Source of the DNA: an uncultured Verrucomicrobiota bacterium
GTDB taxonomy: Bacteria; Verrucomicrobiota; Verrucomicrobiia; Opitutales; Opitutaceae
Reading direction: 5' to 3'
Assembly (NCBI GenBank): GCA_903960515.1
Contig: CAJCBL010000023.1
Location: 7,909 to 71,908 of the forward strand
DNA: 64,000 bases
Part shown: one piece after another, positions 2,786-32,715 of the stretch
Layout: the number at the start of each line of letters is the position of its first letter
How positions within the stretch are numbered: position 1 is the first letter of the stretch
Notes under the pieces: model-generated
What the model was told of the DNA's origin: nothing
The model's database searches: none
Seen by the model: only the letters and a program-made list of their open reading frames with translations
Translations under genes and position numbers: made by a program

Positions 2786-3955
2786 ATGTCCACTCGGCCC
2801 ACCGCAATCCTCGCACTTGAAGACGGCAGCGTGTTTCGCGGCCTGGCGTTCGGCGCCCCCGCGACGACAATCGCTGGCGAAGCCGTGTTTAACACGAGCA
2901 TGACCGGCTACCAGGAGATCCTCTCCGACCCCTCCTACTTCGGGCAGATCGTCACGATGACGGCGCCCCAGATCGGCAACTACGGCATCAGTCCCGAGGA
3001 CGAGGAGTCCGACGGCCCCAAGGTGGCCGGCTTCGTGGTGCGCGAGCTCAGCCCTGTAGTCAGCAACTGGCGCAGCCGCATGAGCGTGCACGACTACCTG
3101 CTCAAGCACGGCATCCCCGGCATCCAGGAAGTAGACACCCGGGCTATCACCAAGAAACTGCGAGTCGAGGGCGCGATGCGCGCCTGCCTCAGCACCGAGG
3201 GCCTCAGCGACGCCGAGGCCGTGGCCCGCGCCCGCGCCTGGGAAAGCATCGTGGGAGCCGACTATGTGAAGGACGTCACCTGCGCAAAGTCCTACGTATG
3301 GAACCCGCAGGACCCGACCAACATCGCCTATCTCCCGGTAGGCACTACGCTGGGCGCCTTCCCCATCCCCGAGAAACGCTTCAAGGTGGCCGCCTTCGAC
3401 TTCGGCGCCAAGCACACCATCTACCGCAAGCTTGTACGCCACGGTTTCGACGTGCATGTGCTGCCCGCCAACGCCACCGCAGCCCAGGTGAAGGAACTCG
3501 CGCCCGACGGCGTATTCCTTTCCAACGGCCCCGGCGACCCTGCCGCCCTCCACTACATTCATGGAACGGTGCGCGAGCTGCTGCCCCACTTCCCCACCTT
3601 CGGCATCTGCCTGGGCCATCAAATGATCACCCACGCCCTGGGAGCCAGCACCTTCAAACTGAAGTTCGGCCACCGCGGCGGCAACCAGCCCGTCAAGAAT
3701 CTGGAGACGGGCAAGGTCTCGATCACCTCGCAGAACCACGGCTTCGCTGCCGACCCGCAATCGTTGGAGAAGGTCGGAGCGGTCGTCACCGAGATCAATC
3801 TCAACGACGGCACCGTAGAGGGCCTGCGGCATAAGGAGCTGCCTGTGTTCTCCGTGCAGTATCACCCCGAAGCCGCTCCCGGCCCCAACGACGCCGACCC
3901 GCTCTTCATCGATTTCTACCGCCTCATCGAAGCCCGCAAAGCCGGGAAGATCTGA
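2786..3955 (+). CDS. carA: carbamoyl-phosphate synthase small (glutaminase) subunit
   Basis: MSTRPTAILALEDGSVFRG...TGYQEILSDPSY matches the CarA N-domain. The class-I amidotransferase triad context is GICLGHQ plus YHPE. ATG at 2786 checked. Confidence 0.95.
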   Translation: MSTRPTAILALEDGSVFRGLAFGAPATTIAGEAVFNTSMTGYQEILSDPSYFGQIVTMTAPQIGNYGISPEDEESDGPKVAGFVVRELSPVVSNWRSRMSVHDYLLKHGIPGIQEVDTRAITKKLRVEGAMRACLSTEGLSDAEAVARARAWESIVGADYVKDVTCAKSYVWNPQDPTNIAYLPVGTTLGAFPIPEKRFKVAAFDFGAKHTIYRKLVRHGFDVHVLPANATAAQVKELAPDGVFLSNGPGDPAALHYIHGTVRELLPHFPTFGICLGHQMITHALGASTFKLKFGHRGGNQPVKNLETGKVSITSQNHGFAADPQSLEKVGAVVTEINLNDGTVEGLRHKELPVFSVQYHPEAAPGPNDADPLFIDFYRLIEARKAGKI

Positions 3956-4039
3956 GGCAGGGAAGAGCCGAAGGAATGGGTCGCATGGATCACATAGGTC
4001 GCATGCGACCTATGCGACCGATCCCAAGGCCGCCCACGC

Positions 4040-4087
4040 CCCCCGGAAAACACTACGCCCGCCTCCCGGGTGAACCGGTGGCGGGCG
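4040..4087 (-). terminator. possible intrinsic terminator downstream of the MCP gene
   Basis: GC stem CGCCCGCC (4056-4063) pairs with GGCGGGCG (4080-4087). On the minus strand it is followed by GTGTTTTCC, a weak T-tract. Confidence 0.35.
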
Positions 4088-4121
4088 CCTGAGCTTCCTC
4101 GTATGACGGGGAGGATAACAC

Positions 4122-6191
4122 TCAGAGATCGCGAAAGAAACTGTCGGCGCTATCGGCCTTGCCGGCCTTTACCACAGCCCGGCCGACGCTCGCCACAGGA
4201 GAAGTAGCCCGCGCCATCATCGGCGCAGCCGATGCCTTGGGGGCCGATGATCGCACCATGGGTTTGGCCGAGAGGGTCGGGGAAGTCTTGCGAGCCATGA
4301 TTGGAGCAGGAGCTGCGGCCTTCGCAGGCGCATGAACCGCGGCCTTCGCTGGCGCAGCCGCAGCGGCTACCGAATGCTCACGCACAGTGGCTACGTGTCC
4401 TTGTTGCGTGCTGGGATGCACCATCTGGCTGAGCTCCTCCACAGCCTCGCTGAGCCTGTCGGCCTGCGACTGGAGTTCGGCCGAGGAACTGGCCGTCTCC
4501 TCCGCGCTGGCGGAGTTGGCCTGGGTGATACGGTCGATGCGCGAGATCTCGGCATTGATCGTCTCGATACCCTGGCTCTGCTGCTTGGCGGCGTCGGCAA
4601 TCTCCTGGATCATCGTATCGAGTTTCCTGGCCCGCTCGGTGATCTCATTGAAACTGTTGCCCACGCGCTCGCTCAGCCGGATACCATGCTCGCTGCGCTG
4701 GTTGGAATTTTCGATCTTGGCGGCGGTTTCGCGGGCGGCCCCGGCGCTGCGGTGGGCCAAGTTGCGCACCTCCTCGGCTACGACTGCGAAGCCGGCTCCG
4801 GCTTCGCCCGCGCGGGCGGCCTCGACGGCGGCGTTAAGGGCCAGGATGTTGGTCTGGAAGGCGATCTCGTCGATGGTCTTGATGATCTTGGTGATCTCCC
4901 CGCCGGCGGATTTGATGGAGTCCATCGCCTCCTTCATGGCCTTCATGTCGTCGGAGCCGTGGTCGGCAGCCTTGCAGGTCTCCCCGGCCATCTGGCGGGC
5001 GCTCTCGGTGTGTTCGGCGGTGCGCTTGATCATGCTGCCCATCTCCACAAGAGAAGAACTGGTTTCCTCCAGGGAAGCCGCCTGCTGGCAGGAACCGTCG
5101 GCCATCGCCTGACTGGCTGTGCTCACTTGTCGCGAGGCTTCGGCGGTGCGGTCGCTGCCCTCCTTGAGCACGGCGGCCACATGGGAGATAGGCAAAGTTA
5201 CGCTGCGGACGATGAAATACCCGGCTACGATGCCAAATACGATACCCAGCAGGCTCAGCCCCATTACCAGGTTCTCGTTACGACTCTGGGCCGCGCTGCT
5301 CGCCTGCTGGGTATCCGCGCGGCGGCTGGCCAGGAGCTGGTTGATCTTCTGTACACGTCCGTTGAAATCGGAGGCCAGCCCACGCATCTCCTTCTCGTAG
5401 ATCACACGGCTGCGGGCCACGCCCTCGCTGACCTTGGCCAGCCCTTGCAACAGCGAAGTGGATTCAGCACGAGTGGCCTTGAGCGCGGCGCGCCGCTCCG
5501 GGTCCTTGAAGGTGGCATCGAACTGCTCCATCTCCTCGATCTCCTTGTCGATCGCCGTGGCCCCTTCGACAAGCTTGTTCAGCGACTGGGTGGCGGAGGC
5601 AGACATGCTCGCATCGGAGGTGAGGAGAAACTGGTTCACCCTCATCAACCCCTCGAAGAAATTCTGCAGGCTGGTGGAGGCCTTGAACGATGCGCTCATA
5701 TCGCCGCTGTCGCGCGCCTTCACCAGCACAAGTTGGAGCGACTTCTGGATCGTGTCCGAACTCGGCTTCATGGCCGCCTCGAACTGGTCGCGCCCGGCAC
5801 GCAGGGCCACGATCTCGCGGAATTGGTTCTCAAACTTGCCAAAATACTGCTTGGACTCGCCTAGCACCGCTTTGGTTTCGGCATCGAGTGCCTGCGCCTC
5901 CAGTCCGCTGAAGTGGCTTTGCATGGAGCGCGATTGCTCGGCGAACACAGCAGCGTCCTCCTTGGCACCGCTGGCCTGGAAGGCGCTCACCGAGCGCAAG
6001 AGCTCCTTCATGGTGAGGTCCAGGCTAGCCGCCTTCGAAGCCAGTTCGGCCCCCTCGACCACGGCTCGCATCCCCTGCCCGGCGCGCCCCAAGGCGAAAT
6101 AGGCTGTGGTAGCCACGAGGATGAGCACCAAGACGACGACTCCAAGCCCGGCAGACATTCGCCGGCCTACGGTGAAATGGGCGCTTTTCAT
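4122..6191 (-). CDS. methyl-accepting chemotaxis protein
   Basis: N-terminal TM, helical sensor and second TM/HAMP are present, plus the conserved signalling hairpin [22 protein letters not shown]. The C-terminal tail is Ala/Pro-rich. No che genes lie nearby. Confidence 0.9.
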
Positions 6192-6216
6192 GATAAATGG
6201 GAAAGTGTTGCGAGAA

Positions 6217-6567
6217 CTAGTTTGGGGAGAATTTCAAGGGAATGGCGACCTGCACAGCCACCGGCGCGCCACCCTTCTTCGCCGGTATGAACTTCCATTT
6301 CGTCAAGGCCTCGAGTGCAGGCTGTTCGAACTCCGGGCGGGTGCTCTTCTTGACCACCGCGTTTTGCACATCGCCCTGCACATCAACCAAGAACGACACC
6401 GTCACCATGCCGGCTACCCCCTCGGCCTTGAGCGCCGCCGGGTATACAGGGGCCACCGTCTTGGTCGGCATCGGAGGCTCATCGAATTTGCTCTCCTGCC
6501 CAAGGGCGGCGCCGGGCAGCAGGGCGCCACAGACCAAAGCGAGCGTAAGCAGCGCGGCGACTCTCAC
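6217..6567 (-). CDS. secreted TonB C-terminal-domain protein
   Basis: GTG start at 6567, signal peptide [23 protein letters not shown], and a TonB_C-like core ([28 protein letters not shown]...[24 protein letters not shown]). Confidence 0.7.
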
Positions 6568-6912
6568 AGGCGAAAGGAGTTTTCGGGATCAACCATCATG
6601 GGGACGTTTCGGAGACAGCTAATCGTCGCCTTTCCTGCCCAACTTGAGGGTAAAATTCCAAGGCATGGTTTCGAAGCCTTCCAGTCGGCCCGGGCCGTGA
6701 GGAAGCAAGCTGCCCGGGGGGCTGTATCAGCATCGCGTGAGGCACACCGAATCGGCCCTTCGCACACCGCGCTCCTTGCCCCACCGCAGGGCGCAGCATC
6801 GCGCCGGTTGCCCGACTCAGAACACTGCACGCGCTCCGCTTTGCGACCGTGCCCGCACTCGGGTGACGGCAGAACGAGGTTACCTGCACACGATCTCTGA
6901 TGCCCATCGGTG

Positions 6913-6963
6913 GCAGCGTGCTTGCACGCGATCCGCCCTCTGAATCGCGTGCAAGCACGCTCC
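6913..6963 (+). repeat. palindromic REP-like element, copy 2 (core hairpin only)
   Basis: AGCGTGCTTGCACGCGAT (6915-6932) pairs with ATCGCGTGCAAGCACGCT (6944-6961) around the loop CCGCCCTCTGA. It lies just 3' of kdsB. Confidence 0.85.
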
Positions 6964-6983
6964 CACAACTGAACTGGCGCGCT

Positions 6984-7733
6984 TCAGGCCCCGCCCAGCA
7001 AACGCTCGAACTTCACCGCATCCTCCGGGGTATCCACTCCTACGCTCGGATCGGCGGTGAGCCCCACAGCGATCGCCGCGCCGCTCTCCAGTGCCCGCAG
7101 TTGTTCCAGTTTCTCGATCTGCTCCAGGCGGCCCGGCGGCAGCTTCGTGAAACGTTCCAGGAACTCAGCGTGGTAGGCATAGAGCCCGAGATGTTTGTAA
7201 CAGGGGTGGGCCGCGAGCCAGGCGTCGTCGACCACTCCGGAGCGGTCTCGGGCGAAAGGCATCGGCGAGCGGGAAAAGTACAACGCACGGCCAGCGTCGC
7301 TCAGGACCACCTTCACCTGGTTGGGATTGGCGAAATCCTCCGCGCGCTGAAACCGGGTGGCCAACGTGGCCAGCGGTGCCTCGCCTCGGATCAGGTCGGC
7401 GAGCGCCTGTAACTGCGCGCGGCTCACCAACGGCTCATCGGCCTGCACGTTGATCACCCGCCTCGCGCCCACGCTGCGATTGGCCTCCGCTAGCCGGTCG
7501 GTGCCGCTTTGATGGCACACCGAGGTGGCGATCGTCCGAAAACCGTGAGGCTCCAACACTGCGGCCAACAGCGGATCGTCCACGGCGAAAAACAGCGGCA
7601 GTTCAGGCATCTCTTGCCTGATACGTTCGGCCACCCAGCGCAGCAGCGGTTTGCCCCGGATGGGGTGCAGCAGCTTGCGGGGGAAACGCGTGGATTCGAG
7701 ACGGCAGGGGACGATGATCGCGAGCTCGTTCAT
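6984..7733 (-). CDS. kdsB: 3-deoxy-manno-octulosonate cytidylyltransferase (CMP-Kdo synthetase)
   Basis: Internal ATG at 7733 (MNELAIIVPCRLESTRFPRKLL). The sequence is KdsB-like throughout (VINVQADEP, YKHLGLYAY). Confidence 0.9.
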   Translation of the reverse strand: MNELAIIVPCRLESTRFPRKLLHPIRGKPLLRWVAERIRQEMPELPLFFAVDDPLLAAVLEPHGFRTIATSVCHQSGTDRLAEANRSVGARRVINVQADEPLVSRAQLQALADLIRGEAPLATLATRFQRAEDFANPNQVKVVLSDAGRALYFSRSPMPFARDRSGVVDDAWLAAHPCYKHLGLYAYHAEFLERFTKLPPGRLEQIEKLEQLRALESGAAIAVGLTADPSVGVDTPEDAVKFERLLGGA

Positions 7734-7819
7734 GAAACGGAATATTTTTTTGACGTTGCCAGTGCCCGGCGACTCATAGGGAATCCCCGTCCGCCGCGCC
7801 AATCGCAAAGGCACAACCA

Positions 7820-8116
7820 ATGGAAAACACCGAATCCTCCGCTGCCATACAGCACATCAAAGTGCTGACCGTGCAGAACAAGATGGGCATCCACGCCCGT
7901 CCGGCGGCGATGATTGTGCGCATCACCAACAAGTTCAAAGCCGATGTGCTGGTGGAGCGAGACGAGGAGCAGGTGAACGGCAAGAGCATCATGGGTCTGA
8001 TGATGCTCGCGGCAGGCCGCGGCTCGTCGCTCAAGTTCATCGTCACCGGCAACGACGGCCCCGGGATGATCGCCGAGCTCGAAGCGCTCTTCTCCCGCAA
8101 GTTCGACGAGGTCTGA
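7820..8116 (+). CDS. ptsH: HPr phosphocarrier protein
   Basis: 98 aa. The His-15 site is GIHARPAA and the Ser-46 regulatory site is VNGKSIMGLM. ATG at 7820. Confidence 0.9.
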   Translation: MENTESSAAIQHIKVLTVQNKMGIHARPAAMIVRITNKFKADVLVERDEEQVNGKSIMGLMMLAAGRGSSLKFIVTGNDGPGMIAELEALFSRKFDEV

Positions 8117-8117
8117 G

Positions 8118-8258
8118 CGGTAACCATTCAATGGCAGGAGCGTGCTTCCACGCGATTCAGAGCGCAGATCGCGTGCAAGCACGCTTCTGCTACGGCTGAC
8201 ACTGGAATTCGGGCACGGTTCGAGAGCAAAGCGGTGCCGCTTCATGGTTACGGCTGAA
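8118..8258 (-). repeat. composite palindromic element, copy 3, reverse orientation
   Basis: Core GGAGCGTGCTTCCACGCGAT (8137-8156), loop TCAGAGCGCAG, then ATCGCGTGCAAGCACGCTTC (8168-8187). The loop is the reverse complement of the copy-4 loop. The CATGGTTACGGCT module at 8243-8255 faces the downstream gene. Confidence 0.85.
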
Positions 8259-8295
8259 GTTTGCGGATTGTCGTCAGCTCACAGGCGCTGCTGCC

Positions 8296-10782
8296 TTGCG
8301 GGGGGTGGCAACTTCAGATCCAGCAACGGCAGCCTATACGATTCGCGCAAGACTTGCCTCCCTCGAGGTCGAGCGGCTGCGGCTGGAAGATGAGCTTCGT
8401 GCGCTGGAGGATGCCCGGCGAGGGCTGCTGCCCTTGTCGCCAGAATCCTCGGCCTCGGGAGTCCTTCAACCCGCCGAGAAGGTAGCCCTCTTTCTCTCGC
8501 TGTTCGGCGCCCGCCGCTCGGTGTATCCCAAGCTATGGGAGAACCCGAAGGCCGGGAAGAAGGGGTACTCACCGGCCTGCGAGAACGAGTGGCGGCGCGG
8601 CGTCTGCGCGAAGCCGAAGGTGAAATGCTCCGAATGCCGTCACCAGAAGTTTCCGCCGCTTGATGCGAGCGCAGTCGAGGCCCACCTGCGAGGCGCGCAC
8701 ACAGTAGGCACCTACGCGATACGAGAGGACGACTCCTGCATCTTCCTCGCCGCCGACTTCGACGAAGATGGCTGGTGGGAGGAGGCGCAGGCCTATGGGC
8801 AGGTGGCGGCCAACGCGCTGGTTCCCGTAGCACTTGAGCGTTCGCGCTCTGGCAACGGCGCCCACGCGTGGACCTTCTTTGCCGAGCCGGTGCCGGCCGT
8901 GCTCGCCCGCCGCCTCGCCACCATCCTGCTGGCCAAGACCTCCGCGGCGCGACCGTCGATGAGCCTGCGTGCGTACGACCGGCTGTTCCCCAATCAGGAC
9001 ACGATGCCGGCAGGGGGCTTCGGCAACCTCATCGCGCTCCCGCTGGCCAAGGTACCGCGGCAGCAAGGCAACACCGTATTCATAGACGAGCAACGCCGGC
9101 CCTACGCCGACCAATGGGCGTATCTCGCCTCGCTCCGCCGCCTGCCCCGCGACGAACTCGACCGACTGCTGGAGCGGCTCGCCCCTCCCGCCCCCATCAG
9201 CACACCAGCGGCGGACGCGGGCGCCGCCTTCTCGCTGGAGAGCGACGAACGAGCGCTCGACCTGTCGTGCCCTAAAATCCCCACCTCAGCGATCCAAGGA
9301 GAGGTGACACTGCGGCTCGATGCCGCCGTCCACATCCCGCGCACGACCCTGCCCCCGGCGCTCCTCGCAAACCTCAAACGCCTGGCGACCTTCGCCAACC
9401 CTGTATTCTACGAGAAGCAGCGGCTGCGTTTCCCAACCTACGATACGCCCCGATTCCTCTTCGCCGGGGAATGGCACCCGGACCGCCTCGTACTGCCGCG
9501 CGGCGTCCTGGAGGAGGCGCAACGCCTCATCGAGGACGCCGGTGCAACCGTGATAATCCATGACTCCCGCCCCGTAGCCCGGCGCATCCGATGGACCTTC
9601 AGCGGCCAACTGCGGCCGGAACAGGAGCTCGCGGTGCGGGAGATGATGAAGCACGAGCGCGGAGTGCTCGCCGCTCCGCCCGGCGCGGGGAAGACAGTCA
9701 TGGGCTGCGCCCTGATCGCCCGGCACCGCACCGCCACGCTGGTCCTGGTGCACCGCGCGGTGCTCCTCGACCAGTGGCGCCAGGAGGCGACAAGTCTCCT
9801 CGGTCTCAAAAAGAAGGATATCGGCGTCTGGCGCGGAAAGACCACCACACGCACCGGCCGCCTGGATATCGCGATGCTGCCCAGCCTCGCCCGCCACGAG
9901 AACCCTGCTGAGGTTTTCGCCCAATACGGGTTGGTCATCGTGGACGAGTGCCACCACGTGCCCGCGGTTTCGTTCGAGGCCTTGCTGAAGGCCTGCACCT
10001 GCCGGCACATCGTGGGCCTCACCGCCACGCCCCAGCGCAAGGACGGGCTGGAGCGCTTGATGCACCTGCAGTGCGGCCCTCTCCGGCACAGCCTCGCCGA
10101 GACGAGGGAAGAAGCGGTACCGCGAGTCGTATTCGTCCGGAAGAGCTCGTTTCAAGTGGAGCCCAATCTGGGTCCGAAGCCTCCGCTCCATGAGGTCTGG
10201 CAGGCCTTGGTCGAGGACCCCGGACGCACAGAGCAGATCGCCTCCGATATCTGGAGCAGCATGAGCGAAGGGCGCAGCCCGCTGGTGCTCTCGGACCGCA
10301 AAGCCCACTTGGAAAAGATCGAAGCAGCGGTCGGCCGGCTACGAGGGGCAGCCGAGGTGTCCGTATTCCGGTTTTCGAGCAGCGATGGGGTGAAACGCCG
10401 GCGCGAAATCCGAGCGGAGCTCGAGGCTCGCGCAGCCGAGGGCAGCCGCTTCGTAATCTTCGCCACGGCCGCGTTGGTCGGAGAGGGCTTCGACCTGCCC
10501 CGGCTCGACACCCTGTTTCTCGCCATGCCGCTCTCGTTCAAGGGTCGGCTAATCCAATACGCCGGCAGGCTGCACCGAGCCCATGCCGACAAAACGGAGA
10601 TCCGAGTCTACGACTACCTCGACGAGAACCACCCCATCACCCTCGCGATGTTCCGCCGCCGCGCCGCGGCCTACCGGCAGATGGGGTACCGGTTTGCCAT
10701 CGACGAGAGCATCGGCGGCGCCGCGCTCCGCGGGCAGCAAGGTCTTTTCGAGGACAGCGTCTCCGCTCCGGATAGACACTAG
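8296..10782 (+). CDS. archaeo-eukaryotic primase (AEP/Prim-Pol)-like domain fused to an SF2 DExH helicase
   Basis: There is no ATG near the 5' end; the start is TTG 8296 or GTG 8305. Motifs: coiled coil aa 20-45; Cys cluster C-x8-C-x6-C-x2-C-x-H aa 94-116; FLAADFD aa 150-156; SRSGNGAHAW aa 183-192. Helicase motifs: PPGAGKT aa 461-467, VDECHH aa 549-554, GLTATP aa 574-579 and QYAGRLHR aa 754-761. Confidence 0.8.
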   Translation: MRGVATSDPATAAYTIRARLASLEVERLRLEDELRALEDARRGLLPLSPESSASGVLQPAEKVALFLSLFGARRSVYPKLWENPKAGKKGYSPACENEWRRGVCAKPKVKCSECRHQKFPPLDASAVEAHLRGAHTVGTYAIREDDSCIFLAADFDEDGWWEEAQAYGQVAANALVPVALERSRSGNGAHAWTFFAEPVPAVLARRLATILLAKTSAARPSMSLRAYDRLFPNQDTMPAGGFGNLIALPLAKVPRQQGNTVFIDEQRRPYADQWAYLASLRRLPRDELDRLLERLAPPAPISTPAADAGAAFSLESDERALDLSCPKIPTSAIQGEVTLRLDAAVHIPRTTLPPALLANLKRLATFANPVFYEKQRLRFPTYDTPRFLFAGEWHPDRLVLPRGVLEEAQRLIEDAGATVIIHDSRPVARRIRWTFSGQLRPEQELAVREMMKHERGVLAAPPGAGKTVMGCALIARHRTATLVLVHRAVLLDQWRQEATSLLGLKKKDIGVWRGKTTTRTGRLDIAMLPSLARHENPAEVFAQYGLVIVDECHHVPAVSFEALLKACTCRHIVGLTATPQRKDGLERLMHLQCGPLRHSLAETREEAVPRVVFVRKSSFQVEPNLGPKPPLHEVWQALVEDPGRTEQIASDIWSSMSEGRSPLVLSDRKAHLEKIEAAVGRLRGAAEVSVFRFSSSDGVKRRREIRAELEARAAEGSRFVIFATAALVGEGFDLPRLDTLFLAMPLSFKGRLIQYAGRLHRAHADKTEIRVYDYLDENHPITLAMFRRRAAAYRQMGYRFAIDESIGGAALRGQQGLFEDSVSAPDRH

Positions 10783-10799
10783 GGCCGCCGGCAACAACG

Positions 10800-10920
10800 C
10801 AGTCGTAGCCATGCAATCGTGCTGCTTTGCGTCTCCCACAGTGCACAAACTTGTCCGCCGTAGGAGCGTGCTCGCGCGCGATCTGCGCTCTGAATCGCGT
10901 GCAAGCACGCTCCTACGGCT
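10800..10920 (+). repeat. composite palindromic element, copy 4, forward (best copy)
   Basis: 25-nt arms CCGTAGGAGCGTGCTCGCGCGCGAT (10858-10882) and ATCGCGTGCAAGCACGCTCCTACGG (10894-10918) with 2 mismatches, loop CTGCGCTCTGA. The TCGTAGCCATGCAATC module at 10803-10818 faces the upstream gene. Confidence 0.9.
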
Positions 10921-11343
10921 CTCAAGAAACAACTGTCTCTTCCCGTCCGGGGCAAAACCCGTTTTGCGGTGGAGGCCGGATGGTAACGGCTCTGTCGCGC
11001 GGCCGCCAAAGGGCTCATCCCCCAGTTGCACCGCCATCCACGCCGACTCCCGCCTCGGCGGCGCGCACATGCCCTCCCCCACGCTCGGATATGTCCCCAA
11101 AACCGGCACCCACGACGAGCATGTGAACGAACCGCAGGGGGGAGCTAGGGCGCGAAACCCGGAAAAGTTTCCCTCCCGCCACAATTGCGGCTTCCATTGC
11201 TCCACTGTGCACCCCACAGTTTGAGAGCCCGTCGACTGATCGCGGTTCAATCCTCCACGCCCCTCACGCGTGACGGGGCTGGACTTCGCCCGGCAGTCGG
11301 GCACGTTCCGCCGCCCATGACGGCGGTACACCGATAGCCCACC

Positions 11344-12780
11344 ATGTCCCAACCTCTCATCATCCAAGGCGGCATGGGCGTCGCCGTTTCCAACTGGCGG
11401 CTCGCCCGTTCCGTAGCGCAGCTCGGCCAACTCGGTGTCATCTCAGGCACTTTGCTGGCGGTTGTCTTTGCGCGTCGCCTGCAAGCGGGCGACCCCGAGG
11501 GGCACATGGCCGATGCGATGGTCCATTTCCCCCTGCCCACAATCGCAGAGCGGGTACGCGCAAACTACTTTGTTGCGGGCGGCAAACCGGCCGGCGCCCC
11601 GTTCAAGGCCGTGGCAATGCCGGGGGTGAACCTGAGCCAATCCCTCAACGAGCTCACCGTCCTGGCCAACTTCGCCGAGATCCACCTCGCCAAGCAGGGG
11701 CACTCCAATCCGGTCGGTATCAACCTGCTGGAGAAGATTCAGGTCGCCACCCTCGCCTCGCTTTACGGAGCGATGCTCGCCGGGGTTGACTACGTGCTCA
11801 TGGGCGCGGGCATCCCGCGGGAAATTCCCGGAGTGCTTGATCGCTTCGCAGCCGGCGAGGCCGCCGAGATCGGTATCGATGTCCTCGGGGCCGCCGCCGG
11901 CACCAAGACCATCGCACGCTTCGATCCCTCCGTACTTTTCAACGGCCCTGCTCCCAAGCTGCGCCGTCCCCAGTTCCTGGCCATAGTCTCCTCGGCCACT
12001 CTCGCAATCACCCTCGCCAAGAAATCCACCGGCCGGGTGGACGGTTTCATCGTCGAAGGCGACGTGGCCGGCGGGCACAATGCCCCGCCCCGAGGGCAGC
12101 TTCAGCTCAGCGCCATCGGCGAACCCGTCTACGGCCCGCGCGATATCCCCGACCTGCCCAAGATTGCGTCCATCGGCCTGCCCTTCTGGCTGGCCGGCGC
12201 CTACGCCGACCCGGCCAAGATCGCCGAAGCCCGTGCGCTGGGTGCCACCGGAGTGCAGATCGGCACCGCCTTCGCCTTCTGCGAAGAGTCGGCCGTGCGT
12301 CCCGACCTCAAGCGCCAGGTCTGCCGCCTCGCCCTCGCCGGTAAGGCCGGTGTGTATACCGATCCGCTCGCCTCGCCCACCGGGTTCCCCTTCAAGGTGC
12401 TCCAGGTCGAGGGTTCGCTCTCGGCCGAGAACGTCTATGGCGCCCGCCCGCGTGTCTGCGATCTCGGGTACCTCCGCGACCCCTACGCCCGTGCCGACGG
12501 CTCGGTCGGATACCGCTGCGCCGCCGAACCCGCCGAGGACTACGTCCGCAAGCTGGGCGAAGCCCCGGCGCTGGCCGGCCGCAAATGCCTCTGCAACGGC
12601 CTGCTCGCCACCGCTGGCTTGGGCCAAAGCCGCGCCGATGGCACCGTGGAGCCTCCGATCCTCACCGCAGGCAACGACGTGGCCCTACTGGCCCGCTTCA
12701 TACCCGCCGGCGCAGAAAGTTACACGGCAGCCGACGTCATACGTTTCCTCCTCGGCGAGATTCCCCAGGCCACCGCCTGA
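11344..12780 (+). CDS. nitronate monooxygenase / 2-nitropropane dioxygenase family flavoprotein (long form)
   Basis: MSQPLIIQGGMGVAVSNWRLARSVAQLGQLGVISGT is the typical NMO N-terminus. Also present are GFIVEGDVAGGHN and GATGVQIGTAF motifs. Confidence 0.8.
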   Translation: MSQPLIIQGGMGVAVSNWRLARSVAQLGQLGVISGTLLAVVFARRLQAGDPEGHMADAMVHFPLPTIAERVRANYFVAGGKPAGAPFKAVAMPGVNLSQSLNELTVLANFAEIHLAKQGHSNPVGINLLEKIQVATLASLYGAMLAGVDYVLMGAGIPREIPGVLDRFAAGEAAEIGIDVLGAAAGTKTIARFDPSVLFNGPAPKLRRPQFLAIVSSATLAITLAKKSTGRVDGFIVEGDVAGGHNAPPRGQLQLSAIGEPVYGPRDIPDLPKIASIGLPFWLAGAYADPAKIAEARALGATGVQIGTAFAFCEESAVRPDLKRQVCRLALAGKAGVYTDPLASPTGFPFKVLQVEGSLSAENVYGARPRVCDLGYLRDPYARADGSVGYRCAAEPAEDYVRKLGEAPALAGRKCLCNGLLATAGLGQSRADGTVEPPILTAGNDVALLARFIPAGAESYTAADVIRFLLGEIPQATA

Positions 12781-21168: not shown

Positions 21169-21238
21169 GTCGTGGCCATTCCGGCGCAGGAGCGTGCCTG
21201 CACGCTGCCCAGGGCGAAAACCGAGCTCCTGCAGGCGC

Positions 21239-22291
21239 CTACGGCCGGCGCCACACCGCCCGGCTCGTACGCGCGGTGCCCACACCCAACTGCTCACAGA
21301 AGTCCAGCAAACGGCGGTCGTCGCCAAGCAGCGGCCGGAAACCGGCGTGTTTGCGCTCGGCGTTGAGCCGCTCGATCATCAGCGCATCCAGAAGCACAGG
21401 ATCGGCGCCCAGCCACAGCCGACGCTCGCTGGCGGTGTAGAGCGAGTTGAACAGAGGCCCTCCGATGAACTGGTAGCACTCGAGGCTCACGATCGTCAGC
21501 CGCCAGCTCTCGCGCAGTTCCGGGATGGCCGCCATCTCGGCCACCGCGGCCGGGGCGTTGGCCGGGCTGTTGAAGAAGCGCTGGGTGTTGCTGGCGTTCC
21601 AGAGCGTGGCGTTGACCAGCGCCCCGTTGATACCGAGCACGGGATGGTCGCTGTACACCGGCAGGTTGATCCAGAAATCCGCCTCAAGAAACAGCGGCGT
21701 GGCCAGAAAACTTTTACGGTCGGCGGAGACCGCCCCCGGCCGCCCCTCCTCGTCGTCGGCCTTGCGCTCGAGCACCGCTGGGGCGAAACGCGCGGGCAGC
21801 GGGCTGTCGTAGAACCACTGCGAATCGTAGAAGCGCCCGGATTCCAGCACGAAGACCGGGTGCTCGGCGAAGCTGTTGCCGCCCTTGCTCAACGCGGGCA
21901 GGAAGCCGGTGGCGCGCAGGCGCACCTGGCTCAGCCCGACCAAGAAAATCTGGTTGGGCGCGAAACCGCGCCGCTCCAGCGCGGCGATCACCGCCAGCAC
22001 CAGGGTGGGAGGCGTGCTCAGCCCGGCGCCCGAGTCGGTGTAGATCTTCAACCCCACCCGCCGGCGCGCGCCCGGCAGCAGCGGCCGCCCGGTCTGCGTC
22101 TCGTAGTCGGAAACCAAGCGCTCGACGGCGGCGCTGTAGCTCGCCTGGCCGAAGTCGGGCAACGCCGCCTCCCATACCACCGGCGAGGGCGGCGGCGGCG
22201 CAGCGGGCTCAACGGCGGCCGAAGCGGTATTCGCGGCGACGAGCCACGGCAAAAACGACCAGTACAAGCGCAGCGGCCAAAGGCTTCTCAT
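21239..22291 (-). CDS. secreted hypothetical protein (DUF362-like)
   Basis: Signal-like N-terminus. RVGLKIYTDSGAGLSTPPTLVLAVIAALERRGF resembles the DUF362 N-terminal pattern. The function call is weak. Confidence 0.55.
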   Translation of the reverse strand: MRSLWPLRLYWSFLPWLVAANTASAAVEPAAPPPPSPVVWEAALPDFGQASYSAAVERLVSDYETQTGRPLLPGARRRVGLKIYTDSGAGLSTPPTLVLAVIAALERRGFAPNQIFLVGLSQVRLRATGFLPALSKGGNSFAEHPVFVLESGRFYDSQWFYDSPLPARFAPAVLERKADDEEGRPGAVSADRKSFLATPLFLEADFWINLPVYSDHPVLGINGALVNATLWNASNTQRFFNSPANAPAAVAEMAAIPELRESWRLTIVSLECYQFIGGPLFNSLYTASERRLWLGADPVLLDALMIERLNAERKHAGFRPLLGDDRRLLDFCEQLGVGTARTSRAVWRRP

Positions 22292-22402
22292 GGGTGGAAG
22301 GGCGGGATTCTTGACAGTGGAAAATCCGGGAGGGAAGGTAAAACCTGCAGGTTAGGACTCGCTCCGCGACGCTTCGTGCCCGACCCGCCAACTCCTCCCG
22401 CC

Positions 22403-24256
22403 ATGCCGATGATCAAACCCGCCAGCGTCCGCGACCTCAAGCAGCGGGTGAACATCGTGGATGTCATCTCCGGGGTGGTCACCCTGCGCAAGGCGGGGGC
22501 AAGCTTCAAGGGCCTGTGCCCCTTCCACCAGGAGAAGTCGCCATCTTTCCACGTCACGCCCGACCGCGGGCTGTACAAGTGTTTCGGATGCGGCAAGGGC
22601 GGCGACTCGATCTCCTTCGTGATGGAGACCGAGCACCTCGCCTTCACCGAGGCCGCCGAGACTCTCGCCCGCCGCTTCAACGTGCCGCTGGAATACGAGG
22701 AGGGAGGCCCCACCCGCGAGGAGCGCTCGCTGCGCCAGGAACTCTACGACCTGCACGAGCTCGCCACCGAGCATTTCCACGGCGCCCTCCAGGGGCCGGC
22801 GGCGGTGGGCACCTTCATGCGTGCGTATTGGACGGACAAACGCCGCTTCCCGCTCGAACTCGCCGAGGAGTTCAAGATCGGCGCCTCCGACGAGACCGGA
22901 GGCGGCCTGGCCGCCCTGCTCGCCCGGCACAAGTTCTCCGAGGAGGCCTTCCGGCAGTGCGGCCTGTTCTTTGTGCGCGAAGGAGTGCCCTTCTCCGTGG
23001 GCGCGCTCAAGCCCCGCTTCCGCGGCCGCCTGATGATCCCCATCCGCGACATCCAGGGGCGCGTCGTGGCATTCACCGCACGCCAGACCGACATCACCCC
23101 TGCCGACGATCCGTCGCGCGAGGCCAAGTACGTCAACTCCCCCGAGACTCCGATCTTCACCAAGGGCGACCTGCTCTTCAACCTCGACCGCGCCCGCAAA
23201 CACGTGGACAAGACGCCCTTCGTCATGGTCGAGGGCCAGCTCGACGCCATGCGCTGCTGGCACGCCGGGCTCAAGAGCGTAGTGGCCCCCCAGGGCACCT
23301 CCATCACCGAGCGCCAGCTCCACCTGCTGCACCGGCTCAATCCGCGCCTGGAGTGTTTCCTCGATGGCGACGCCGCCGGGCGCAAGGCCGCCTTCCGCCT
23401 GCTGCCGCTCTCGCTCAAGACCGGCCTTGAGGTGAAGTTTCTCCTGCTCTCCCCCGGCGAGGACCCCGACGCTCTCTTCCGCGACCGGGGCATGGCCGCC
23501 TACGAGGAACTCCGCCTCCAGGCCCTCGACGGCATCACCTTCGCCTGCCGCGCCCTGCTGCCCGACCCCGCCAAGGCCTCCGCACTCGACCGCCAGGAGG
23601 CCATGAAGCAGCTCTTCGAGATCATCGCCCACAGCCCTTCGGAAACCGCCCTCGAAGCCTACCTCGGCCAGATCCAGCGCGAACTGCGACTGGGCCGCGG
23701 ACTCTTTGCCGACTTCGAAACCTTCCGCCGCAGTGCTCGCCACGGAGGGATCGCCGCCGACCAGGACCACCGGGTAACACCCGATTCCGGCGTCACCGAA
23801 ACCTACCGCCCCGCCGGCCCCGAGGAACACCTGCTCCTCCTTTGTCTCCACCACGAGGAGCTCGGCCCGCCCCTGGCCTCGCTGGTCCAACACGACTGGA
23901 CCACAGCGGACTCGGTCGCCGGCCGCCTGCTAAACCGCGCCCTCGCCGCCTTCCACGACTGCGACTGGCCGGGCAAGGACGAGGTGATGAGCCTCGCCCA
24001 CGACGACCCCGCCGAGCAGGCCCTGCTGACCAAACTGCTCTTCGTACCGCCGCGCGAAGACGACCCGATCAAAGTCGCCAACGAGGGGTTACGCATGCTC
24101 CACCAGCGCTTCATCCGCCGCCAGCTCGACCAGATCGGACTTGAAATAGCCTCCATTCGTCCGGACAGTGACGCCGACTCTTCTCTTGTGCTGCGGAAAA
24201 AGGCCGACTTGATCCGACAGTCCAAACACCCGCCGCAGCTCTCCGCCCACCACTAG
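22403..24256 (+). CDS. dnaG: DNA primase
   Basis: Start ATG 22403 (MPMIKPASVRDLKQRVNIVDVI). Zinc finger CPFHQEKSPSFHV...YKCFGCG, with a TOPRIM motif VMVEGQLDA. The 1020-aa ORF in the track is an upstream read-through. Confidence 0.95.
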   Translation: MPMIKPASVRDLKQRVNIVDVISGVVTLRKAGASFKGLCPFHQEKSPSFHVTPDRGLYKCFGCGKGGDSISFVMETEHLAFTEAAETLARRFNVPLEYEEGGPTREERSLRQELYDLHELATEHFHGALQGPAAVGTFMRAYWTDKRRFPLELAEEFKIGASDETGGGLAALLARHKFSEEAFRQCGLFFVREGVPFSVGALKPRFRGRLMIPIRDIQGRVVAFTARQTDITPADDPSREAKYVNSPETPIFTKGDLLFNLDRARKHVDKTPFVMVEGQLDAMRCWHAGLKSVVAPQGTSITERQLHLLHRLNPRLECFLDGDAAGRKAAFRLLPLSLKTGLEVKFLLLSPGEDPDALFRDRGMAAYEELRLQALDGITFACRALLPDPAKASALDRQEAMKQLFEIIAHSPSETALEAYLGQIQRELRLGRGLFADFETFRRSARHGGIAADQDHRVTPDSGVTETYRPAGPEEHLLLLCLHHEELGPPLASLVQHDWTTADSVAGRLLNRALAAFHDCDWPGKDEVMSLAHDDPAEQALLTKLLFVPPREDDPIKVANEGLRMLHQRFIRRQLDQIGLEIASIRPDSDADSSLVLRKKADLIRQSKHPPQLSAHH

Positions 24257-27970: not shown

Positions 27971-28666
27971 TCAGACAAAAAGACCGTCGCGCATCGGGCG
28001 AATAATATCGCAGCGTTTGGCTATATCGGGGTTGTGCGTGACGAGCACCACCGCCTGCTCATTGTCTCTCGCGAGCTTGCACAGAAGGTCGAACACCAGC
28101 CCGGAGTTGGCCTGGTCGAGATTGCCGGTGGGTTCGTCAGCAAGAATGATAGAGGGCGCATTGGCCAGCGCCCGTGCTATCGCCACGCGCTGCTGCTCAC
28201 CGCCGGAGAGTTGCGTGGCCAGACGCTTGGATTTGTCCCCTAGCCCAACGTCGGTCAGCAATTGCTGGGCACGCGCCGCCATGTGGTCCGGGCTGAGGCG
28301 GCCGAGCTTGCGCATCGGCATCATCACGTTTTCCAACGCGCTGAATTCCGGTAGCAGGAAGTGGAACTGGAATACAAAGCCGACGTGTTCGCATCGCACT
28401 GCCGTGCGGGCGGCGTCATCGGCTTGACTCATCTGGTTGCCGTTGATCCAAATATCTCCTTGTTCGGCGCGATCCAGCAGGCCGAGGAGATACAGCAAAG
28501 TGCTCTTGCCGCAGCCTGAAGGCCCTACGATGGCACAAACCTTACCCCGTTCAGCTTCGAAGCCGACCCCGCGCAATACATGCACCCGGCCTTCGCCAGA
28601 GCCGAGATAGCGGTGTACGCCATTGCAGGAAAGTGCGAGGTCTCGGGGAGTGGAGGGGTTGCTCAT
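27971..28666 (-). CDS. ABC transporter ATP-binding protein (MacB/LolD/DevA-type)
   Basis: Walker A GPSGCGKST, signature LSGGEQQR, Walker B ILADEPTGNLD. ATGA overlap with the permease gene. Confidence 0.9.
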   Translation of the reverse strand: MSNPSTPRDLALSCNGVHRYLGSGEGRVHVLRGVGFEAERGKVCAIVGPSGCGKSTLLYLLGLLDRAEQGDIWINGNQMSQADDAARTAVRCEHVGFVFQFHFLLPEFSALENVMMPMRKLGRLSPDHMAARAQQLLTDVGLGDKSKRLATQLSGGEQQRVAIARALANAPSIILADEPTGNLDQANSGLVFDLLCKLARDNEQAVVLVTHNPDIAKRCDIIRPMRDGLFV

Positions 28667-29901
28667 TGCGAAGTCCCTCGGATAACGTCACCCGGTTCAA
28701 GACGGGCGGCGCGGCGCGCAGGGATAAGGCTGGCCATCATCACCACCACCGTAGCCGTGGCGGCAGCGAATACATAGTGCCAGATCGACCAGGCTACAAC
28801 AAAGCTGTCGGTCGAAAATATACCGCGGATGCGGATAGGCAGTCGGGATACGCCATAAGTGATGGCGGCGCCGAAGATCCAGCCCAAGACAACACCTATG
28901 ATCAGTACGATGGCGCCCTGCCAGAGGAAAATACGGGCGATATCCTGCCGAGTATAACCCATCGAGCGCAAGATGGCTATCTCCTTGGTCTTCTCCATAA
29001 CAATCATGGCCAAGGTATTAAACATGCCAAGCCCGGAAATAAGGATCAGGGTGGAAACAGTGAGGGCGGATGAAACGCGCAGCGCCCGGAACACCTCAAG
29101 CCAGGTCTTCTCGCGTGCCTGCCAAGACTTGACCGAATGCCCCAAGGTACGCTCCATATGAGCGGCGTCAGCCGGAGCGCGATCGCGATCGGCGATCGCC
29201 ACCTGCAGGAATGAGGCACCGCTGGGCTTTTGCAGCAGGGATCGGGTTTCCTGCATGTGCATGTACATGCGCTGCCGATCAATATCGCTCACACCGGTCT
29301 CAAAAATCGCAGAAACACGGTAATTGCGCATCTGGTTGGAGGCCTCCAGGGTAATCGACTCGCCCACATTTACCCCTAGGCGGCTGGCCAAAACCCGGCC
29401 CACGAGAAGCCCGCTGGGGTTGATCTTAAAGTCGTTGAGATGGCCGAATACGATCTGCTGTCCCAGATCGGACACCCGCAACTGATCGTCTATATTTATA
29501 CCGAAAACCCGGGCCGAATCGCTTTGGCTGCCCCGGCGCACAAGCACCGCCCCCGTAAGCACCTCAGCGATTCCGGTGACGTTGCCGAACTGGTTGACCG
29601 CCTGCCGCAACTTCTCGGGTTCGGTGATGCCCTCTACGTATTTCACACTGTCGCGATGTTCAAAGTCGAAAGCGGAACCGTCGGAAGACATCGAACTGAG
29701 GGTATCCTGGATGCGATCCTCAATGCGAATAGCCCCGTTGGTCCCAAGAATGGTCTTGATGAAAAACTCCTCGAAACCGCTGGTCTGCGCCTGGGTGACG
29801 ATGAAGAAACCCACGCCAAACACAATGCCTGCGAGGCTCATCAACATGGAGCGCCGCTTGGCTGTGAGGAACCGCAGCGCGATACGGATGTTCGGTGACA
29901 T
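28663..29901 (-). CDS. ABC transporter permease, FtsX/MacB-type
   Basis: TM1, a large periplasmic domain, then three C-terminal TMs. Contains KEIAILRSMGYTRQDI, the FtsX-family pattern. Confidence 0.85.
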   Translation of the reverse strand: MSPNIRIALRFLTAKRRSMLMSLAGIVFGVGFFIVTQAQTSGFEEFFIKTILGTNGAIRIEDRIQDTLSSMSSDGSAFDFEHRDSVKYVEGITEPEKLRQAVNQFGNVTGIAEVLTGAVLVRRGSQSDSARVFGINIDDQLRVSDLGQQIVFGHLNDFKINPSGLLVGRVLASRLGVNVGESITLEASNQMRNYRVSAIFETGVSDIDRQRMYMHMQETRSLLQKPSGASFLQVAIADRDRAPADAAHMERTLGHSVKSWQAREKTWLEVFRALRVSSALTVSTLILISGLGMFNTLAMIVMEKTKEIAILRSMGYTRQDIARIFLWQGAIVLIIGVVLGWIFGAAITYGVSRLPIRIRGIFSTDSFVVAWSIWHYVFAAATATVVVMMASLIPARRAARLEPGDVIRGTSQ

Positions 29902-29915
29902 CAGGCGTGGTAGGG

Positions 29916-31037
29916 TTAGGAGCCCTTGTCGGTTTTTACCTCGGCAACCGACACTCGATCTCCCACACGAAACCGATCGAGATCCTCAACGATAACAGCG
30001 TCGCCAGCTTCGAGACCACGCATAATTTCCACAGAATTGAGACTGGTGAAGCCCACCTCGACGGTCTTCAGTTCCACACGGCCATCCTTCACCAGAAAAA
30101 CACTGCGGCCAAACAAGGCCCGCCGGGGAATGATCACCGCATTGTCCCGAGCATCCACTACAATATTAACCTCACCGGTGATGCCGGGCACCAACAGCTT
30201 GGGATCGATCTCCACGGACAGGTGGACCATATAACGCTGGGTGAGCGGGTCGGCAGCGGGAAGGATCTTCTCCACTCGCGCGGAGTACTGTGTGGCACCG
30301 TAACTTAGAAAGCGTAGCGTGGCGTGCTGCCCGATCTTCAAACCGGCGAAATTTTCCTCGCTGATCCTCGCCTCGATCACGCGACTGTCGGCGATGATGG
30401 TGGCCACCGGTTCACCAGTCGAAATCAAATCGCCAACATTGGTAAATACTGCGGAGATGACTCCCTCCACAGGCGAGCGAAGCGTCATCTTGCTGCGACT
30501 GCGGTTAGCCACCTTCAAATCGTTCTCGATCCTCGCCAACTGCTGAGCGTTGGCAACATTCTCAAGTTCCAATTTCTGCTCGATCTGTTTCACCACGCGC
30601 CGCTGCCGCTCCAGATCAACGGCTGTCACTGTGCCCTGCTTGGCCAAGCGATCCGCAGTCTCCAATTGGTCATTGGCATTTTGAAGCTCAAACTGAGTGG
30701 CCGACCCGATCTGGATACGCTTCTGTATCGTCGAGCGATCATTCTCCAATTGATCGATTTGCAGGTTCAGATCGGTCTGGTCGAGTTCGATCAGCACACC
30801 GCCGGCAGCCACCTTCGAACTCAGTTCGAGATTGCTGCTGACAATGCGCCCGCCCACATCGCTTTTGACCTGTAGCGCGCGCTCGGCCAACACCGTGATG
30901 GACCCGGGAACCGCATTGATCGCACGGTCTCGCTTGGCCAGCACCACGATGGCTTGGGGGCGCATCATCTGCACCCCAAGCCAAGCAGCCACGGCGATCA
31001 ACACCAGAACTCCAGCCAACTTCAACTTGTAGGACAT
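29916..31037 (-). CDS. efflux periplasmic adaptor (HlyD/MFP family)
   Basis: Internal ATG at 31037 (MSYKLKLAGVLVLIAV). Lipoyl, coiled-coil and beta-barrel pattern, including SPVEGVI. Confidence 0.85.
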   Translation of the reverse strand: MSYKLKLAGVLVLIAVAAWLGVQMMRPQAIVVLAKRDRAINAVPGSITVLAERALQVKSDVGGRIVSSNLELSSKVAAGGVLIELDQTDLNLQIDQLENDRSTIQKRIQIGSATQFELQNANDQLETADRLAKQGTVTAVDLERQRRVVKQIEQKLELENVANAQQLARIENDLKVANRSRSKMTLRSPVEGVISAVFTNVGDLISTGEPVATIIADSRVIEARISEENFAGLKIGQHATLRFLSYGATQYSARVEKILPAADPLTQRYMVHLSVEIDPKLLVPGITGEVNIVVDARDNAVIIPRRALFGRSVFLVKDGRVELKTVEVGFTSLNSVEIMRGLEAGDAVIVEDLDRFRVGDRVSVAEVKTDKGS

Positions 31038-31050
31038 CGAAAGATAAGAA

Positions 31051-32409: not shown

Positions 32410-32589
32410 CGGGTTTGCTGGTTTGTCCGGCCAAACACCAAGCCACCCTTTGGCAGTGATAGCCGAACGGAAATTCCGTCGAGATGTAAGGGTCACCGGA
32501 GACGGGTCAAACACAAAATTTTGCGCCGCCAGAGCGCTTGGGCGCGGGGATCGCAAGATTTCAGTTCCTTAACCGTACCCATTCTCAGT

Positions 32590-32715
32590 CGCAGGAGCGT
32601 GCTTGCACGCGATTCAGAGCGCAGATGGCGTGCTAGCACGCTCCTTCGGCGGGCACCGGAGTTCGTGCACTGCCAGAGCGCAAGGCCGTAGGATTGCATG
32701 GTTACGGCTTAGGTG
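32590..32715 (-). repeat. composite palindromic element, copy 5, reverse orientation
   Basis: Core GGAGCGTGCTTGCACGCGAT (32594-32613), loop TCAGAGCGCAG, then ATGGCGTGCTAGCACGCTCC (32625-32644). Downstream modules GGAGTTCGTGCACTGCCAGAGCGC and GCATGGTTACGGCT match the other copies. Confidence 0.85.

Follow-up and report, generated by a model that had tools for sequence, protein, structure and literature searches.

A 64,000-nucleotide stretch of DNA from an uncultured Verrucomicrobiota bacterium of the family Opitutaceae (contig CAJCBL010000023.1, positions 7,909 to 71,908; hereafter the window) carries, at 8296-10782 on the + strand, a complete gene that fuses an archaeo-eukaryotic primase (AEP) primase-polymerase to a superfamily 2 (SF2) helicase of the XPB type. 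Such a gene raises the question of what its product does in a cell whose housekeeping primase gene, dnaG, lies elsewhere in the same window (22403-24253, followed by rpoD), as a preliminary description of this DNA had already pointed out. That description proposed a single-gene conflict module, and the fusion gene holds up as a candidate for one, what speaks for it being the defence- and toxin–antitoxin (TA)-rich neighbourhoods of its homologues. In our view, there is about an even chance that the fusion is a self-contained, accessory and horizontally mobile 'conflict' gene, not a housekeeping or replicon-initiator gene, whose opening of and priming on invader DNA disrupts the replication of the invader.

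The gene and its primase-polymerase half

The open reading frame (ORF) of 828 codons, given at the same coordinates in the preliminary description, is supported by the ORF list, its translation and its coding-type composition (GC at third codon positions, GC3, 0.81; at second positions, GC2, 0.49), like that of the other real genes of this ~65% GC window, and it ends with TAG at 10780-10782. The GC content of the gene equals that of the genome. An identical protein has already been called on metagenome scaffolds of 72 kb and 33 kb, and the entry ENA ERZ18650584 (BUCK21-1 scaffold_126), which encodes the identical protein, has the same gene order as the window; the close relatives that bear names all come from metagenome-assembled genomes of Opitutaceae (Verrucomicrobiota). 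The start calls differ between JGI (825 aa, from GTG 8305) and NCBI (782 aa, P0003, beginning at Leu47), and the NCBI call drops 8296-8436 and hence the conserved N-terminal coiled coil. Because homologues share the N-terminal helix (aa 9-42), we take the long form, starting at TTG 8296 or GTG 8305, to be correct and the NCBI start not to be, which backs the non-ATG start noticed previously.

This N-terminal coiled coil, also part of the preliminary description, is seen as a long helix in the AlphaFold model (8320-8421, pLDDT ~77-80), and its heptad-like R-x-x-L-x-x-L pattern is kept in homologues. It is probably an oligomerisation element. The full-length model has a pLDDT of 80 and a pTM of 0.67.

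The archaeo-eukaryotic primase hallmarks that had been read from the sequence are borne out by profile searches, which place aa 61-290 (8476-9165, +) firmly within the AEP superfamily: the Pfam AEP-TOTE model PF22548 matches with 298.5 bits against a cutoff of 27, over profile positions 1-229 of 230, and the PADLOC model for Cas-associated PrimPol with 264.7 bits. A profile built from 30 sequences and compared with solved structures matched the Marinitoga CAPP PrimPol (7NQD/7NQF, E 2e-17) over aa 119-292. The NCBIfam equivalog for CAPP, PrimPol_Msp, scores below its threshold (75.3 against a cutoff of 200). Motif I, D154-x-D156, provides the predicted metal ligands (8755-8763), motif II, S183-R-S-G-N-G-A-H190, is the nucleotide-binding sGxGxH element (8842-8865), and motif III comprises the acidic residues D228 and D235 (8977-9000). 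The positions at which the motifs had been listed, FLAADFD at aa 150-156, SRSGNGAHAW at aa 183-192 and, in the helicase half, PPGAGKT at aa 461-467, VDECHH at aa 549-554, GLTATP at aa 574-579 and QYAGRLHR at aa 754-761, are all exact.

In order to evaluate the conservation of these motifs we compared 75 full-length homologues, taking one genome per species from many phyla. The primase residues D154, D156, S183, S185, G186, G188, H190 and D235, together with the helicase residues K466, T467, D550, E551, H554, Q754, R758 and R761, are present in all 75, and D228 and H553 in 74. Both catalytic centres are thus intact as far as their sequences tell, and because the catalytic residues are conserved at 99-100% in these homologues, both enzymes are under strong purifying selection.

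Inside the AEP module lies a cysteine cluster (8578-8637, +) with the spacing C95-x8-C104-x6-C111-x2-C114, for which homologue conservation suggests a putative zinc site; the AlphaFold model has low-to-moderate confidence here (pLDDT 62-67). The cluster had been described as C-x8-C-x6-C-x2-C-x-H. Its four cysteines are kept in 70-72 of the 75 species-level homologues, but the trailing His116 did not survive the comparison, being His in 30 and Asn in 34 of them; since this histidine is not conserved, the metal site should be read as Cys4 and not as Cys4-His. The whole Cys4 segment is deleted in a subclade comprising six of the 30 closest sequences (P0036, P0046, P0051, P0052, P0073 and P0099; alignment A1, columns ~165-195), which retains every catalytic residue. 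This subclade offers a natural test of whether priming needs the zinc cluster.

The helicase half and the middle domain

The preliminary description of a complete DExH helicase core was also confirmed, with SF2 motifs I, II (DExH), III and VI all present. Helicase domain 1 (9607-10095, +) matches Pfam ResIII with 86 bits and contains motif I (GAGK466T), motif II (D550-E-C-H-H) and motif III (T576-A-T-P), followed by R581-K-D; helicase domain 2 (10123-10680, +) contains motif VI (Q754-Y-A-G-R758-L-H-R761) and gives a weak Helicase_C match (aa 656-762), its fold matching XPB/UvsW. Taken together, the ResIII, DEAD and Helicase_C matches span aa 438-762. Against solved structures, the 30-sequence profile matched the Sulfurisphaera XPBII helicase (6P4F, E 4e-20) over aa 435-762, pairing TATP-RKD with TATP-ERDD. 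R581, K582 and D583 are invariant in alignment A1, and we take this site after motif III to be the position of the XPB 'RED' motif.

Fold searches with the AlphaFold model point the same way. The PDB matches were to T4 UvsW (E 1.7e-20) and also to XPB/TFIIH structures, and in a viral library the matches were to phage SSL2-type helicases, of which one of 436 aa superposes at a TM score of 0.88 over 471 alignment columns; archaeal XPB (~440 aa) and T4 UvsW align to the model over ~500 columns. For aa ~330-800, sequence and fold comparisons both match XPB/SSL2/UvsW-type proteins best. The NCBIfam equivalog scores are far below their cutoffs (CAPP 75 against 200, XPB 72.9 against 610, RadD 38 against 720), so that the protein is a relative, and not an orthologue, of CAPP, XPB and RadD.

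Between the two enzymes lies an alpha/beta domain (aa 310-435; 9223-9600, +) that is modelled with a pLDDT of ~90 in the full-length protein. The XPB/SSL2/UvsW alignments, at 471 to ~500 columns, are longer than the conserved core of ~360 residues and therefore take in aa ~330-437 as well, and on the strength of the model this region is probably the N-terminal, DNA-binding-type domain of an XPB/SSL2/UvsW unit. The 'unknown fold' assigned to it at first is thus probably superseded by the whole-model alignments; when aa 296-440 were modelled in isolation (pLDDT 65), there was no significant PDB fold match (best E 0.24) and no sequence match.

A widespread, accessory and mobile family

Using the N-terminal 440 aa as query, we retrieved 7,742 clusters at 50% identity, 1,140 of them at E <= 1e-30, most of the proteins being 780-830 aa long. 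Relatives occur in at least 589 of 185,579 species-representative genomes and, among the matches listed, come from Verrucomicrobiota, Desulfobacterota, Acidobacteriota, Planctomycetota, Gemmatimonadota, Chromatiaceae, Actinomycetota and others. The E. coli homologue WP_000233452, ~39% identical over the N-terminal half, is found in 876 of 5,426 complete genomes (16%), including O157:H7, with 901 of 908 places chromosomal. It follows int, a helix-turn-helix (HTH)/AlpA gene, YfjI and an 'inovirus Gp2-type' gene in integrative islands, and the O157:H7 copy (L095:12001-14361) belongs to the integrase-proximal part of an island that also carries urease genes. This homologue is often disrupted by IS1 or IS66.

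Homologues are carried by 120 of 72,556 plasmids, of which 50 are conjugative, and phages gave a single weak, partial match in 50,697 records. The four plasmid copies that we examined are cargo beside recombinases, TniQ, TA or island genes, none of them in a replication module: one adjoins a strawberry-notch gene and a tyrosine-recombinase trio, another TniQ, VapBC and an integrase, a third follows HigB/HigA, and the fourth sits in an AlpA-YfjI island by cdiBA. In E. coli EC93 pCP127 the copy (L093:8872-11238) adjoins a DprA-like gene and cdiBA, and one plasmid copy lies ~7 kb from traA and a coupling protein. Homologues are thus not consistently embedded in plasmid or phage replication modules, and, with the SF2 motor, this cargo position and near-absence from phages support the earlier view that the protein is neither a replicative primase nor a replicon initiator.

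Relatives at 76-83% identity sit at three different chromosomal sites among housekeeping genes, namely (in the window) between ptsH and the NMO-like gene, at PRiA4_ORF3/bacA, and at an Mrp antiporter with a ParE-TA pair. The flanks of the window showed no synteny with any of 87 homologue loci, and when the NMO-like neighbour was used as an anchor for the empty site in metagenome contigs, the best relatives were at most 78% identical and none had the HPr/HprK neighbourhood. That the fusion family is accessory and mobile is well supported. As regards copy number, a Planctomycetota locus (L058, range 2787-12421) seems from tblastn to hold another match, helicase or AEP-helicase-like, ~7 kb upstream of the main one, and two plasmids, from Azotobacter and Cupriavidus, have two match places per record.

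Neighbourhoods and architectural variants

In order to find out which genes accompany the family, genes were called in the loci of 79 species by a codon model for which the AEP-helicase gene of each locus served as training set, and the top 25 neighbour families were listed per shell, with genes at least five genes and at least 4.5 kb away in the same loci as control. The immediate neighbours (n=142) include Fic (10), HTH_3/XRE (8), AbiEii (5), PIN and PIN_3 (4 and 3), N6_Mtase (3), HepT (2), Eco57I (2), integrase (2) and DDE transposase (2), and the second shell (n=122) Gp49/HigB (3), HepT (3), DUF4143 (3), HipA (2), Phd (2), MazE (2) and integrase (2). The control (n=142) gave DsbD, ABC, two-component and thioredoxin families, plus four PIN, and no Fic, AbiEii, XRE, methylase or HepT among its families with at least two members. 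Since the immediate neighbours are enriched and the distal control is not, the defence/TA signal is genuine and does not reach beyond a small islet that surrounds the gene. PADLOC assigns nine of the neighbouring Fic genes to SoFic (best E 1e-123), and it also recognises AbiEi/AbiEii and type I methylases.

There is no universal partner gene, Fic being the most frequent at 16 of 87 loci in an all-against-all clustering of flanking ORFs. SoFic is directly coupled to the fusion gene, with stop and start overlapping or nearly abutting, in ~9 species of several phyla, and Fic and the AEP-helicase may constitute a two-gene system instead of standing together by chance. At L013, L016 (Fic at L016:8807-10006), L017, L018, L020, L024, L046 and L057 we observed a Fic_N+Fic gene of ~400 aa directly upstream, with 0-5 nt spacing or a 4-nt overlap; the species concerned are Opitutaceae, Spirochaetia and an unclassified bacterium, and a truncated Fic is found in Spartobacteria (L028). 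Direct coupling was also found to a type I HsdR (L083) and to an XRE gene preceded by a HigB-like gene (L035-L037, L045). The latter arrangement recurs as a trio of a ~118-aa Gp49/HigB-like toxin, a ~91-aa XRE/HigA regulator and then, after a gap of 2-25 nt, the AEP-helicase, at L027, L035, L036, L037, L045 and L094:7132-10271 (an Acinetobacter plasmid), with Verrucomicrobiota, 'delta proteobacteria' and Acinetobacter plasmids as hosts. AbiEii lies 16 nt upstream of the AEP-helicase at L072, and an MmeI-like enzyme (L029, L043) or an SNF2 helicase (L033) is found upstream on the same strand.

In family members of 940-1100 aa the C-terminus carries either a PLD-like nuclease or a DUF559/Vsr-like endonuclease, and one member has a GNAT domain at its N-terminus. 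The pairing of helicase and nuclease follows a logic typical of restriction-type effectors. Among these variants, PLDc_2 is found in P0164, P0171 and P0187, DUF559/MTES_1575 in P0141 and the GNAT domain in P0187; in P0216 a TraG P-loop takes the place where the SF2 helicase would be. The window protein is the nuclease-free core form and a partner-free example of the family.

Comparison with known systems

The fusion family itself is not new, as it has a Pfam model, a PGAP name ('TOTE conflict system archaeo-eukaryotic primase domain-containing protein', for the E. coli homologue) and two published comparative descriptions, and the window adds no new architecture. A comparative description by Aravind from 2022 is said to include it. 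The name TOTE stands for TPR, OB, TBP, Effector (Aravind, Iyer & Burroughs 2022, cited by PMC12458937). The family model of the AEP effector domain of TOTE is matched over its full length by the fusion protein, but the defining TPR-S1/CSD and TBP partners are lacking here. No TPR-S1/CSD (OB) or TBP family is among the families listed for the two shells of the 79 species, and no TPR-OB or TBP protein was found among the window neighbours within ~8 kb, which have other Pfam assignments, or in the E. coli islands; a CspA-based search for an OB partner gave no match in the window or in ~95 loci, a search that a divergent S1/CSD could escape. The TOTE label given in the preliminary description is thus right as the name of a domain (Pfam PF22548, PGAP) but does not stand for membership of a system, because the TPR-OB and TBP partners are absent here and among the families listed beside the 79 homologues.

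Among the closest known architectures is that of CAPP-Helicase, which has a homologous AEP domain and the same PrimPol-then-helicase order. Zabrady et al. 2021 (PMC8211822) defined a class CAPP_A with TPR, RT (reverse transcriptase) and Helicase types, found PrimPol-then-helicase to be the most prevalent architecture among non-CRISPR CAPP homologues, and measured DNA-dependent DNA polymerase and primase activity for the TPR-type MpCAPP only, not for the helicase type. Unlike CAPP, the fusion protein has no cas1/cas2 or CRISPR array nearby, and it adds the N-terminal coiled coil and the Cys4 cluster. With XPB/Rad25/SSL2 and T4 UvsW it shares the SF2 DExH core, TATP followed by R-K-D and, probably, an N-terminal domain in the equivalent place; it differs in its fused polymerase and in the lack of Bax1 or TFIIH partners, and it is not an orthologue (73 against 610 bits). 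A PrimPol domain is also present in DRT7/PPRT (UG10), a single-protein anti-phage system that makes DNA (bioRxiv 10.64898/2026.04.18.719102; PMC12439943), in which, however, an RT domain stands in place of the helicase partner; no DRT model was among the PADLOC matches at E <= 0.1. The replicases of mobile genetic elements (MGEs) pRN1 ORF904, BcMCM and P4 alpha/D5-type likewise combine an AEP primase with an NTP-driven DNA motor on mobile DNA, but their motors are hexameric SF3 or MCM and they belong to replication modules with origins, in contrast to the SF2 XPB-type motor and the defence/TA cargo position of the fusion family.

Proposed role and alternatives

In the conflict-gene reading, the ATP-driven XPB-type motor would bind the DNA of an invading replicon (replication intermediates of a phage or plasmid), be it duplex or branched, and open it locally, and the exposed single strand would be handed to the AEP domain for de novo start and extension of a DNA chain. 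Such unscheduled priming and strand-displacement synthesis would block or derail the replication of the invader; alternatively, aberrant, toxic or alarm DNA products could arrest the infected cell. Relatives with a PLD or Vsr-type nuclease would additionally cut the DNA. The activities invoked are those expected from homology to CAPP, XPB and UvsW, and we infer foreign DNA as the target and immunity as the outcome. It is by association, through the neighbours of the homologues, that a defence role is supported as a candidate. A bolder version, possible if doubtful, sees in the family a self-sufficient immune effector of an as yet undemonstrated type that does without a nuclease, in which the motor opens the invader duplex and origin-free priming kills replication or makes a DNA alarm, some lineages having turned it into an obligate pair with SoFic. 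So far, reverse transcriptases (the DRT systems, with the RT-PrimPol fusion DRT7 among them) are the enzymes for which polymerase-based immunity has been shown, and the conflict-gene reading, if true, would extend it to AEP enzymes by way of a widespread primase-polymerase joined to a DNA-opening motor. As the family is so abundant (at least 589 species, and 16% of the complete genomes of E. coli, which offers a tractable representative), a single role assignment would cover thousands of genes.

Several observations weigh against this reading. The literature searched yielded no functional work on the AEP-TOTE/XPB-type fusion architecture, in agreement with the preliminary description, which knew of no biochemical or phage-defence function for the family, and none of the PADLOC models for validated defence systems spans the whole protein. 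Within ~8 kb the window copy has only housekeeping neighbours, with no nuclease, toxin, methylase or sensor partner beside it, and we see no evident means of self/non-self discrimination and no evident effector step. The association with TA and restriction-modification (RM) genes could reflect shared insertion hot spots instead of a common function. In addition, sequence identity falls roughly with taxonomic distance, from 57-83% within Opitutaceae to 46-52% in other Verrucomicrobiota and 40-47% in other phyla, a gradient compatible with long residence and a cellular role.

Other explanations have to be considered as well. The family could provide a selfish establishment or replication factor of mobile elements, much as plasmid-borne primases or AEP-helicase replicases do; on an island or plasmid that has just entered or been excised, it would start the complementary strand or initiate synthesis independently of an origin, and the Opitutaceae copy would be a stranded remnant. 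This would suit the 120 plasmid records, 50 of them conjugative, the copy ~7 kb from traA and the coupling protein, and the E. coli copies that follow int, AlpA/HTH, YfjI and the Gp2-like gene in integrative islands. We consider it unlikely, as the motor is of the monomeric SF2 type seen in XPB and UvsW and not a hexameric SF3, SF4 or MCM motor, the plasmids carry their own typed replicons, and integrases account for only 2 of the 142 immediate neighbours. Near-absence from the 50,697 phage genomes and a window copy with no MGE genes within 8 kb also speak against a factor of this kind, for which nuclease-fused paralogues and coupling to HsdR or MmeI would be unfit.

The genome-typical GC and the housekeeping neighbours of the window copy would fit an accessory damage-tolerance or repair enzyme, whose XPB-like motor would open lesions or stalled forks while the PrimPol re-primes, bypasses or joins ends by microhomology. 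Eukaryotic PrimPol, Pol theta, mycobacterial Prim-Pols, AgaPP and PPRT would be its analogues, and the nearest helicase relatives, XPB, RadD and UvsW, are repair or recombination motors. AgaPP, an MGE-derived PrimPol, carries out translesion synthesis and microhomology-mediated end joining with a partner helicase and raises survival after damage (PMC11724360), and the PPRT PrimPol domain also serves the oxidative-damage response (PMC12439943). However, the recurrent neighbours of the family are TA, RM and SoFic genes, and none of Ku, ligase, a Bax1-like nuclease or Uvr recurs beside the homologues; core repair genes are not typically so patchy in distribution, so variable between strains or so changeable in chromosomal site, and the scores for XPB (73 against 610) and RadD (38 against 720) do not indicate orthology, so that we regard this role as quite unlikely, good as its biochemical precedent is. 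Finally, the protein could be the effector of a multi-gene TOTE system, or a CRISPR adaptation accessory (CAPP), with partners encoded elsewhere in the genome. The Pfam 'TOTE conflict system' AEP and the PADLOC Cas-associated PrimPol models do match, and the CAPP-Helicase type occurs in some CRISPR loci. That is highly improbable nonetheless: the vicinity of the gene contains no TPR-OB/CSD, TBP, cas gene or CRISPR array, nor does any stand out elsewhere in the 64-kb window, the partners, Cas families included, do not recur among the families listed for the two neighbour shells of the 79 species, nor in the E. coli islands, and the CAPP equivalog scores 75 against a cutoff of 200.

The locus and other features of the window

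Upstream of the fusion gene are two SPFH genes, carA, an MCP gene, a TonB_C protein gene, kdsB (KdsB) and ptsH (HPr, 7820-8116), and downstream are an NMO-like oxidoreductase gene (11344-12780), hprK and a PNP-family gene. No phage, plasmid, integrase or replication genes were found within ~8 kb, in line with the preliminary description, since all neighbours in this range are housekeeping. No CRISPR-like array is present in the window and no cas genes near the fusion gene.

The gene is bracketed by two very stable REP-like hairpins, one between ptsH and the fusion gene (8132-8192; -42.1 kcal/mol, z -6.7) and the other, in the opposite orientation, 68 nt past the stop codon (10850-10926; -55.9 kcal/mol, z -10.7). 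The palindrome has the arms AGGAGCGTGCTTGCACGCGAT / ATCGCGTGCAAGCACGCTCCT and an 11-nt loop, and it occurs in both orientations, at 495-547, 6912-6964, 8132-8192, 10850-10926, 32593-32645 and 62839-62859, always intergenic; 0.01 copies are expected by chance, against at least six in the window. The element has no Rfam match, and no Rfam family reaches its gathering threshold anywhere in the window. Around the fusion gene, a sigma-70 scan gave 0 sites, no T-tract terminator was found and Rfam gave nothing at or near threshold. These hairpins belong to a genome-wide REP-like family and are likely, in the simplest view, terminators or insulators that make the fusion gene its own transcription unit, so that the window copy is likely a single monocistronic unit between REP-type hairpins. 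We also considered them as the ends of a mobile cassette and rejected this, given the at least six copies at unrelated intergenic sites and the loop of the upstream copy, which is identical to that of the copy at 32.6 kb.

That latter copy (32593-32645) marks the end of a block of lower GC (27971-32556, - strand; 55-58%, against ~65-68% in the flanks), which encodes a MacB-type ABC efflux system with an ABC ATPase, an FtsX/MacB permease, an HlyD adaptor and an OEP outer-membrane factor, and which is possibly a separate horizontal acquisition. Further upstream, the mechanical ORF that holds dnaG runs ~400 codons beyond the start of the gene (21194-22402), a part with no Pfam match, and an ORF on the opposite strand (21239-22291, GC3 0.89) is probably the real gene in that place.

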